A stretch of DNA of 64,000 nt from Promethearchaeati archaeon SRVP18_Atabeyarchaeia-1 (GTDB taxonomy: Archaea; Asgardarchaeota; Atabeyarchaeia; Atabeyarchaeales; Atabeyarchaeaceae): positions 640,001 to 704,000 of the forward strand of contig CP147779.1 in NCBI GenBank assembly GCA_037308085.1, given 5' to 3'. This document shows, one piece after another, positions 58,148 to 58,497 of this stretch. The notes beneath the pieces are model-generated. The model worked only from the letters and a program-made list of their open reading frames with translations, made no database searches and had not been told where the DNA came from. Each line of letters opens with the position of its first letter. Positions within the stretch are counted from its first letter, which is position 1. The position numbers were made by a program, and so were the translations under genes.

Positions 58148-58497
58148 GGGGTTATGGTCCTAGGCGGGGGGCTAGGGACTCAGGTCGAAACCTCGCTTGG
58201 GCTAGAACTCCCCTGTACCGCAAACGCCCTATACGGCGGGCCGAATGCCGGCTTGAGGGGCTCCGAGCGCCCACGCAGCCTTCACCAAGGAGCGTGAAGT
58301 CTCGCCCTGGAGGGTGTCTGGTGGTCGAACGTTTCCCGTAGGGGAAATGGAGAAGACTGTTACAGGCAAATCCGACTAGGGCCGGGAGGCAGCAGTCGTA
58401 AGCTTGGCTAGGTGCGCTTCCAGGATCACGGGATGGATTTCCTCGGAGAGGGTGTTGGTGGACGTGAGGGACTTCGAGAGTCGGGGGCCATAACCCC
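58148..58497 (+). ncRNA. ffs: SRP (7S) RNA, intron-containing
   Basis: Terminal helix GGGGTTATGGTCC/GGGCCATAACCCC; Alu CCCCTGTA motif; helix-8-like CTAGGGCCGGGAGGCAGCAG; TATA-like tract at 58119-58130. Confidence 0.88.
58178..58207 (+). other. BHB intron in the SRP RNA Alu domain
   Basis: Outer helix GGGGG/TCCCC, central CTAG/CTAG, bulges GGA and AAC, inner stem CTCAG/TTGGG. Confidence 0.8.

Follow-up and report, generated by a model that had tools for sequence, protein, structure and literature searches.

The window analysed here, a stretch of 64,000 nucleotides from the genome of a wetland Asgard archaeon of the Atabeyarchaeia (contig CP147779.1, positions 640,001 to 704,000), contains an SRP RNA gene with 30 surplus bases in the helix-3 loop. 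This raises the question of whether these bases are kept in the mature RNA or are removed from it by the enzymes that splice tRNA. Our answer, given with high though not complete confidence, is that a genuine 30-nt archaeal bulge-helix-bulge (BHB) intron, at 58178-58207, splits the SRP RNA gene within the part that encodes the helix-3 loop of its Alu domain. The anatomy of the insert, its fit to the covariance model, its conservation and the genes for the enzymes were observed directly, while cleavage and ligation were inferred. It follows from the same inference, with neither a junction read nor cleavage data in hand, that the SRP particle of this organism very probably depends on the tRNA-splicing enzymes.

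The SRP RNA gene and the insert in its helix-3 loop

A whole-genome model search with the Rfam family Archaea_SRP (RF01857) returned one SRP RNA hit in the 2.81-Mb single-contig genome, at 58152-58493 on the + strand of the window. The match scored 125.5 bits against a gathering threshold of 96.5 bits and spanned model positions 1-317 with both the Alu and the S domain, and the criterion for membership in the family was thereby fulfilled along the whole model. As the only SRP RNA gene of the genome, it must be functional. Both ends of the gene were extended from the model hit by terminal pairing of GGGGUUAUGG (58148-57) with CCAUAACCCC (58488-97), and the spacing between an upstream A/T-rich box and the first paired base, 58148, is inferred to fit an archaeal promoter. 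A permuted and circularised SRP RNA of the Thermoproteus type was excluded. The alignment is collinear from 1 to 317, the terminal helix is built from the gene's own ends, and the 3' part is not encoded upstream of the 5' part, so that the criterion for such a gene was not met. The features of the locus are as follows.

58119-58129, + strand: putative archaeal promoter, a TATA-like A/T-rich box about 25 nt 5' of the SRP RNA start
58148-58497, + strand: SRP (7S) RNA gene, from the RF01857 match plus terminal pairing, with a T-run after it at 58500-58506
58148-58177, + strand: exon 1, with helix 1/2 strands, the 5' strand of helix 3 and loop bases CUAGGG, from the model alignment and the predicted BHB cut
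58164-58171, + strand: 5' strand of the outer helix h (the 5' strand of helix 3), pairing with 58209-58216 in eight consecutive pairs, invariant in six sequences
58172-58175, + strand: 5' strand CUAG of the central helix H, pairing with CUAG at 58202-58205, invariant in six sequences
58176-58178, + strand: 5' bulge GGA, with a predicted cut at 58177/58178 from canonical BHB geometry
58178-58207, + strand: predicted 30-nt BHB intron, the model insert, with the inner helix h' at 58179-85/58195-201 and a short apical stem beyond
58202-58205, + strand: 3' strand CUAG of the central helix H, within the predicted intron, from the sequence, the motif scanner and the six-sequence comparison
58206-58208, + strand: 3' bulge AAC, with a predicted cut at 58207/58208, where the model insert ends
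58208-58497, + strand: exon 2, which contributes the 3' strand of helix 3 and holds the UGUA turn, helices 4 and 5 and the S domain, from the model alignment
58226-58231, + strand: helix-4 loop word GCCCUA, to which UAGGGC of the spliced helix-3 loop is complementary

Within the helix-3 loop, 31 nt of this gene align to a place where the RF01857 consensus has a single one. Alignment to this model, which the earlier note on this DNA had named as a check of its proposed intron, placed 30 surplus bases at the predicted site, with the model insert ending at 58207/58208. Predicted intron and model surplus were accordingly equal in length and identical in their 3' boundary. The note had further described the insert as bounded by a full BHB; every coordinate was found to be correct on re-reading, and the strict BHB motif scanner returned the same element with h=8 and h'=7. 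The hBHBh' structure is complete, with an outer helix of 8 bp, a central helix of 4 bp (CUAG/CUAG), two 3-nt bulges (GGA and AAC) and an inner helix of 7 bp. The outer helix had been given as GGGGG (58167-71) with UCCCC (58209-13), which is correct and forms part of a full length of 8 bp (58164-71/58209-16), and the inner stem extends to its 7 bp from a 5-bp core of CUCAG (58179-83) and UUGGG (58197-201). Folding with RNAfold recovered the central and inner helices, with the outer stem in another register and unpaired stretches of 2 nt instead of 3 nt. On both strands the bulge lies 3' of the central-helix segment. The canonical motif of tRNAs, with its anticodon-side strand paired to the 3' end of the intron, has the same orientation, and the SRP geometry is therefore genuine and not a mirror image.

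EndA cleaves a BHB after the second bulge base. Excision at these canonical positions would give the predicted junction GGCUAGGG joined to CUCCCCUGUA and a helix-3 loop of consensus length, as in intron-less relatives. It was also borne out that removal of 58178-58207 leaves UAGGGC, the exact complement of GCCCUA (58226-31) in the helix-4 loop. The spliced word forms 6/6 loop-loop pairs with GCCCUA and the unspliced word 5/6; UAGGG is contiguous already in the unspliced RNA of this gene, and splicing gains only the one pair. Across the phylum the pairing of loop 3 with loop 4 covaries.

The following course of maturation is proposed. The primary transcript would fold locally, such that the 5' strand of helix 3 and the adjoining CUAG pair with a CUAG-UCCCC mimic at the 3' end of the insert; in this precursor, UAG would be locked in the central BHB helix. 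An endonuclease, apparently built from two EndA paralogs, would then cut after the second base of each 3-nt bulge, and RtcB would ligate the exons and probably circularise the intron. The expected product carries the consensus-length loop CUAGGG(C), whose UAGGGC would pair with the helix-4 word GCCCUA and close the Alu fold. Because UAG sits in the central helix, one RNA could not adopt the BHB fold and make the mature loop-loop contact at the same time.

The BHB motif by itself proves nothing, as it occurs at the same frequency in shuffled sequence. The genome-wide count of strict motifs was 3769 when h and h' each had to reach 4, and block-shuffled sequence, used as the chance control, gave rates equal to those of the genome. 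At the strength of the SRP motif (h>=8, h'>=7) the genome has 4, and shuffles gave 0-3 per 0.8 Mb. A motif of this strength is expected by chance roughly once or twice per Mb per strand. The chance that both cut sites of such a motif fall, to within a couple of bases, at the edges of the insert defined by the model was estimated from the shuffle rates at about 1e-6, and at about 2e-4 for the weakest threshold. Since the motif alone is not rare, the case rests on its coincidence with the model insert, on the conserved core with its free interior, on the enzymes and on an intron in ahcY of the same genome. The other strict BHBs with h>=8 and h'>=7 lie at genome positions 1184569-1184648 (+), 1396352-1396396 (-) and 1801720-1801763 (-), and these may be introns or chance. 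A 74-nt CUAG/CUAG motif at 50199-50272 of the window was treated as chance on account of apparent coding sequence and weak flanking helices.

SRP RNA inserts in close relatives and across the Asgard phylum

The class, which here equals the order, consists of three species genomes only, namely the window genome (G000), a congener (G001) and a member of the sister genus (G002). All three carry the insert, with a length of 30 nt in the window genome and its congener and of 31 nt in the sister genus. These genomes were compared together with three metagenome contigs obtained by gapped pattern search; two of the seven metagenome hits of that search (L032 and L037) were discarded as chance matches that are not SRP RNA. 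The resulting six sequences show no difference in the outer helix, the CUAG/CUAG core or either bulge, and the intron interior has strongly diverged between the two groups, which correspond to genera. The inner helix is 94% paired across the six, with changes from C-G to U-A and from U-G to C-G, and sliding of the 3' partners as a register control lowered pairing from 98% to at most 59%. Covariation is thin, however, as only 2 double changes are seen in six close sequences, a value reached in 119 of 500 shuffles and not significant.

In intron-less Asgard SRP RNAs the helix-3 loop is 5-6 nt long and reads (C/U)UAGGG, the same as in the predicted spliced RNA of the window. An exact search of JGI metagenome contigs for the spliced junction found none, and a search of 185,579 species genomes for the spliced helix 3 gave three bacterial chance matches only; neither of the two turned up an intron-less allele or an assembled spliced RNA. 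In the absence of an intron-less allele that shares this helix-3 sequence, gain or loss of the intron cannot be dated. In the survey of relatives that had been suggested beforehand, the insert with its invariant BHB was present in all three class genomes, and intron-less alleles were not recovered.

The wider phylum sample comprised 151 genomes, 132 of them with SRP RNA hits. A stronger functional argument comes from another Asgard family, f12, where the same loop contains 30 inserted nucleotides at a site lying two bases 5' of that in the window; this insert was studied in 14 sequences from 12 genomes and two metagenome contigs (L017, L018, L020, L033, L034 and L050-L058). Here the BHB is relaxed, with a canonical 5' half and a 3' bulge that has either one extra base or a G-G mismatch, and the sole register with a sensible product is a GGCU/GGCY central helix, which yields the helix-3 hairpin of the window. 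Splicing would form a word from UAG of exon 1 and the first three bases of exon 2, and for 12 of the 14 sequences this word makes 6/6 pairs with the helix-4 loop, against 4/6 for the unspliced word; in the two exceptions (G084 and G065) both words make 5/6. Three independent compensatory events were identified. In G092 a change from C to U is matched by one from G to A, in G088 a G to A change converts G-U into A-U, and in L033/L034 a U to C change converts G-U into G-C. As the loop pairing covaries across the insert, the bases on its two flanks act as one strand, and from these alignments the f12 insert is judged to be removed or, at minimum, looped out.

A further type of insert was found in the GNAR tetraloop of helix 8, where 13 genomes of four families (f7, f14, f18 and f20) carry 18-32 extra bases (loci L008, L009, L014, L015, L023, L026, L041-L045, L059 and L060). 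In 13/13 the insert opens with CGGG and the bulge AGA. It closes with complementary YYYG and AAG or AUG, except in G008, where ACCG and ACG leave one central mismatch. No relationship is seen among the interiors, and their first inner pair varies with the family (U-A, G-C or C-G). Excision gives an identical apex, CCC-GGGA-GGG-AGCA, in 13/13. The SRP helix-8 tetraloop contacts SRP19, and an insert that was retained there would be predicted to destroy this conserved element. The helix-8 BHB inserts make BHB splicing of Asgard SRP RNA much more credible in general.

Inserts without a BHB are found as well. Nine loci of several families (L013, L014, L015, L023, L026 and L046-L049) have an extra hairpin of 5-10 bp between Alu helices 3 and 4 that lacks a BHB and, as far as can be judged from the alignments, looks like a true expansion. 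The same extra hairpin is present in G028, G037 and family f19. Helix-3-loop inserts reported by cmscan in G008, in G011 (f7) and in G018 (f10) turned out to be misplaced hairpins of this kind and not introns, and cmscan misplaced the hairpin in this way at loci L013, L014 and L015. In G025 (L029) an insert of 31 nt containing a 10-bp hairpin lies in the 5' strand of helix 8, at about SRP positions 204-234, and the scanner found no canonical BHB in it.

Splicing enzymes, RNA contigs and alternatives to splicing

The genome encodes two EndA paralogs of 209 and 241 aa (at 202592-203221 on the - strand and 623841-624566 on the + strand), each with an N-terminal and a catalytic C domain, and a single gene for the ligase RtcB. 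The presence of two paralogs suggests a heteromeric enzyme of the broad-specificity kind. The 241-aa paralog (G000:C1:623841-624566; L039:1084-1809) showed a weak match to the N-terminal domain of Sen54, a eukaryotic subunit, at E = 2e-4 and below the curated cut-off. Outside the window, the ahcY gene of the same genome contains a strict 34-nt BHB intron at 488226-488259. Without this intron the open frame is 420 aa long instead of 357, and the Pfam positions become contiguous. The restoration of the ahcY frame by removal of a BHB means that the enzymes very probably act on non-tRNA transcripts in this organism.

Parts of the stretch are present in metatranscriptomes of wetland, sediment, soil and peat (ten runs), and contigs from four of these runs were aligned; no splice joint was reported for any of the four. 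RNA contigs of three of the four runs covered exon 2 or the S domain only. An RNA contig of 236 nt, X1, aligned at 58199-58430 with 4 clipped letters and three differences; only the one at 58234 was listed as lying away from an end, and the other 2 mismatches were unlisted. The heptamer GGGCUAG is present twice, at the end of exon 1 (58169-75) and at the end of the intron (58199-205). Owing to this duplication the X1 alignment is compatible with a spliced molecule that starts at 58165, which would have a GG versus AA mismatch and four clipped bases. The spliced form fits, an unspliced strain variant is not excluded and the junction letters are not visible, and the contig is consequently suggestive only.

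The most serious alternative to splicing is that the 30 nt are a lineage-specific expansion hairpin kept in the mature SRP RNA, with the likeness to a BHB arising as a by-product of the growth of a G/C-rich stem-loop. Real extra Alu hairpins do exist between helices 3 and 4 in f7, f10, f18 and f19, BHB-like motifs are frequent by chance, UAGGG is contiguous without splicing and no junction read was present in the RNA contigs examined. We nevertheless regard retention as unlikely. Between genera the bulges and the 4-bp core are invariant and the body is replaced, as would be expected for a processing signal and not for a structural arm, and the central helix would sequester the UAG that is required for the loop-loop contact. 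In f12, moreover, that contact exists only across the insert and covaries, and the helix-8 inserts of four families would wreck a conserved tetraloop if they were kept.

A cut by EndA could also go without religation of the halves, leaving an SRP RNA in two pieces, and the outer helix of 6-8 bp together with the 10-bp terminal helix could hold these in place. The genome encodes RtcB, however, and the known BHB excisions all end in ligation, that of SRP RNA included (Plagens et al. 2015, PMC4731332); X1, if spliced, is a joined molecule as well. A two-piece RNA was on these grounds considered very improbable. Even less weight, close to none, was given to a BHB that arose by chance and has no role in processing. 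It is supported by the shuffled sequence, which produces motifs with h>=8 and h'>=7 about as often as the genome does, and against it the cut sites coincide with an insert that was defined independently by the model and the core is identical in six sequences of two genera. Excision of the 30 nt followed by ligation thus remains the reading that we prefer.

Relation to known introns and possible origin

BHB introns are textbook knowledge in archaeal tRNA and rRNA and are also known in a few mRNAs; those of the cbf5 type occur in protein-coding genes of Crenarchaeota. In cbf5-type mRNAs, and very probably in ahcY of this genome, the tRNA splicing machinery works on a transcript that is not a tRNA. 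The mRNA introns are judged by restoration of a reading frame, whereas the SRP intron is judged by restoration of an RNA fold. That no BHB intron is known in SRP RNA, as the earlier note had it, agrees with a full-text literature search, which found no simple intron in any SRP RNA. The kind of intron is known; for SRP RNA as its host we found no published case.

The only published link that we found between SRP RNA and tRNA splicing enzymes is the circularly permuted SRP RNA gene of Thermoproteus tenax and T. uzoniensis (Plagens et al. 2015, eLife, PMC4731332). The two systems are alike in that maturation proceeds via a BHB, with cutting by the tRNA splicing endonuclease and joining by RtcB, both of which are inferred in the present case. 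Thermoproteus also has a heteromeric EndA, as is suggested here, and very many tRNA introns (PMC4731332). The systems differ in gene order and product: in Thermoproteus the gene is permuted, the BHB forms between leader and trailer and a circular RNA results, whereas the gene described here is collinear and has an internal 30-nt intron. They differ in lineage too, with the permuted gene in Thermoproteales and the present one in Asgard archaea. Plagens et al. 2015 raised, as a speculation, the idea that permuted genes arose from an ancestor whose BHB introns were simple (PMC4731332). If the SRP RNA intron is real, a simple and conserved intron of this kind would be the missing form guessed at by these authors, and co-translational protein targeting would depend on tRNA splicing.

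Within Atabeyarchaeia, introns interrupt 92-95% of tRNA genes (PMC11291895). Pre-tRNA BHB introns at non-canonical positions in Atabeyarchaeia and Freyarchaeia (PMC11291895; bioRxiv 10.64898/2026.10.13.758758) share the hBHBh' geometry, the size range and presumably the enzymes with the insert described here; their host is tRNA and the present host is SRP RNA. The introns described in these papers are confined to tRNA, and the terms SRP and signal recognition have zero mentions in PMC11291895, in its companion paper and in bioRxiv 10.64898/2026.10.13.758758 on Asgard tRNA introns. A true SRP intron would be a further sign of tRNA-type introns spreading beyond tRNAs in intron-rich Asgard archaea, and would bear on the origin of intron-rich gene expression. 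On the practical side, covariance models score intron-bearing SRP genes lower and the annotated mature sequence may be wrong.

The inserts of the window, f12 and helix 8 may be combined into a broader proposal, which we put forward tentatively and hold to be possible rather than probable. According to this proposal, SRP RNA of several intron-rich Asgard lineages gained BHB introns independently at two or more sites, which include the helix-8 tetraloop and, in the helix-3 loop, two positions separated by two bases. These gains would belong to a wider movement of tRNA-type introns, across the genome, into mRNAs and structural RNAs. EndA/RtcB splicing would have become obligatory for core machines, and CUAG would be a preferred insertion site of mobile introns. 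If the independent gains are true, splicing would be obligatory for core machines in the closest prokaryotic relatives of eukaryotes.

A spread from tRNA genes had been suggested in the earlier note on the basis of the CUAG/CUAG core, which it reported also in D-loop introns of tRNA-Gly and tRNA-Pro of the window. These were confirmed: tRNA-Gly (34151-34316, +) and tRNA-Pro (52769-52926, +) have D-loop inserts with CUAG/CUAG cores that would be cut two bases after CUAG. The tRNA that adjoins the SRP gene (57923-58050, -) has a CUAG/CUGG core and the same GGA bulge. CUAG is palindromic, and any CUAG in an exon can therefore form the central helix with an intron that ends in the same four bases; this would explain a shared site preference. 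BLAST of the intron with its BHB against the same genome found no relative, the best other match being 15 nt long, and descent from a tRNA intron is for this reason unproven. The core and the insertion point are thus shared as suggested, but the descent has not been demonstrated, and the spread from tRNA genes stays an idea that rests only on the palindromic CUAG core and on insertion two bases after it.

The three interrupted tRNA genes at 34151-34316, 52769-52926 and 57923-58050 are 128-166 nt long with several inserts each, among them D-loop inserts that directly follow CUAG. All three were missed by ARAGORN and the Rfam tRNA model, which found only the tRNA at 52487-52578. Elsewhere in the window, at 63613-63674 (+), a unit of about 15 nt (GGUGACUGAGCCAAA) is repeated in tandem, and the repeat gives a weak sub-threshold match to a C/D-box sRNA model.
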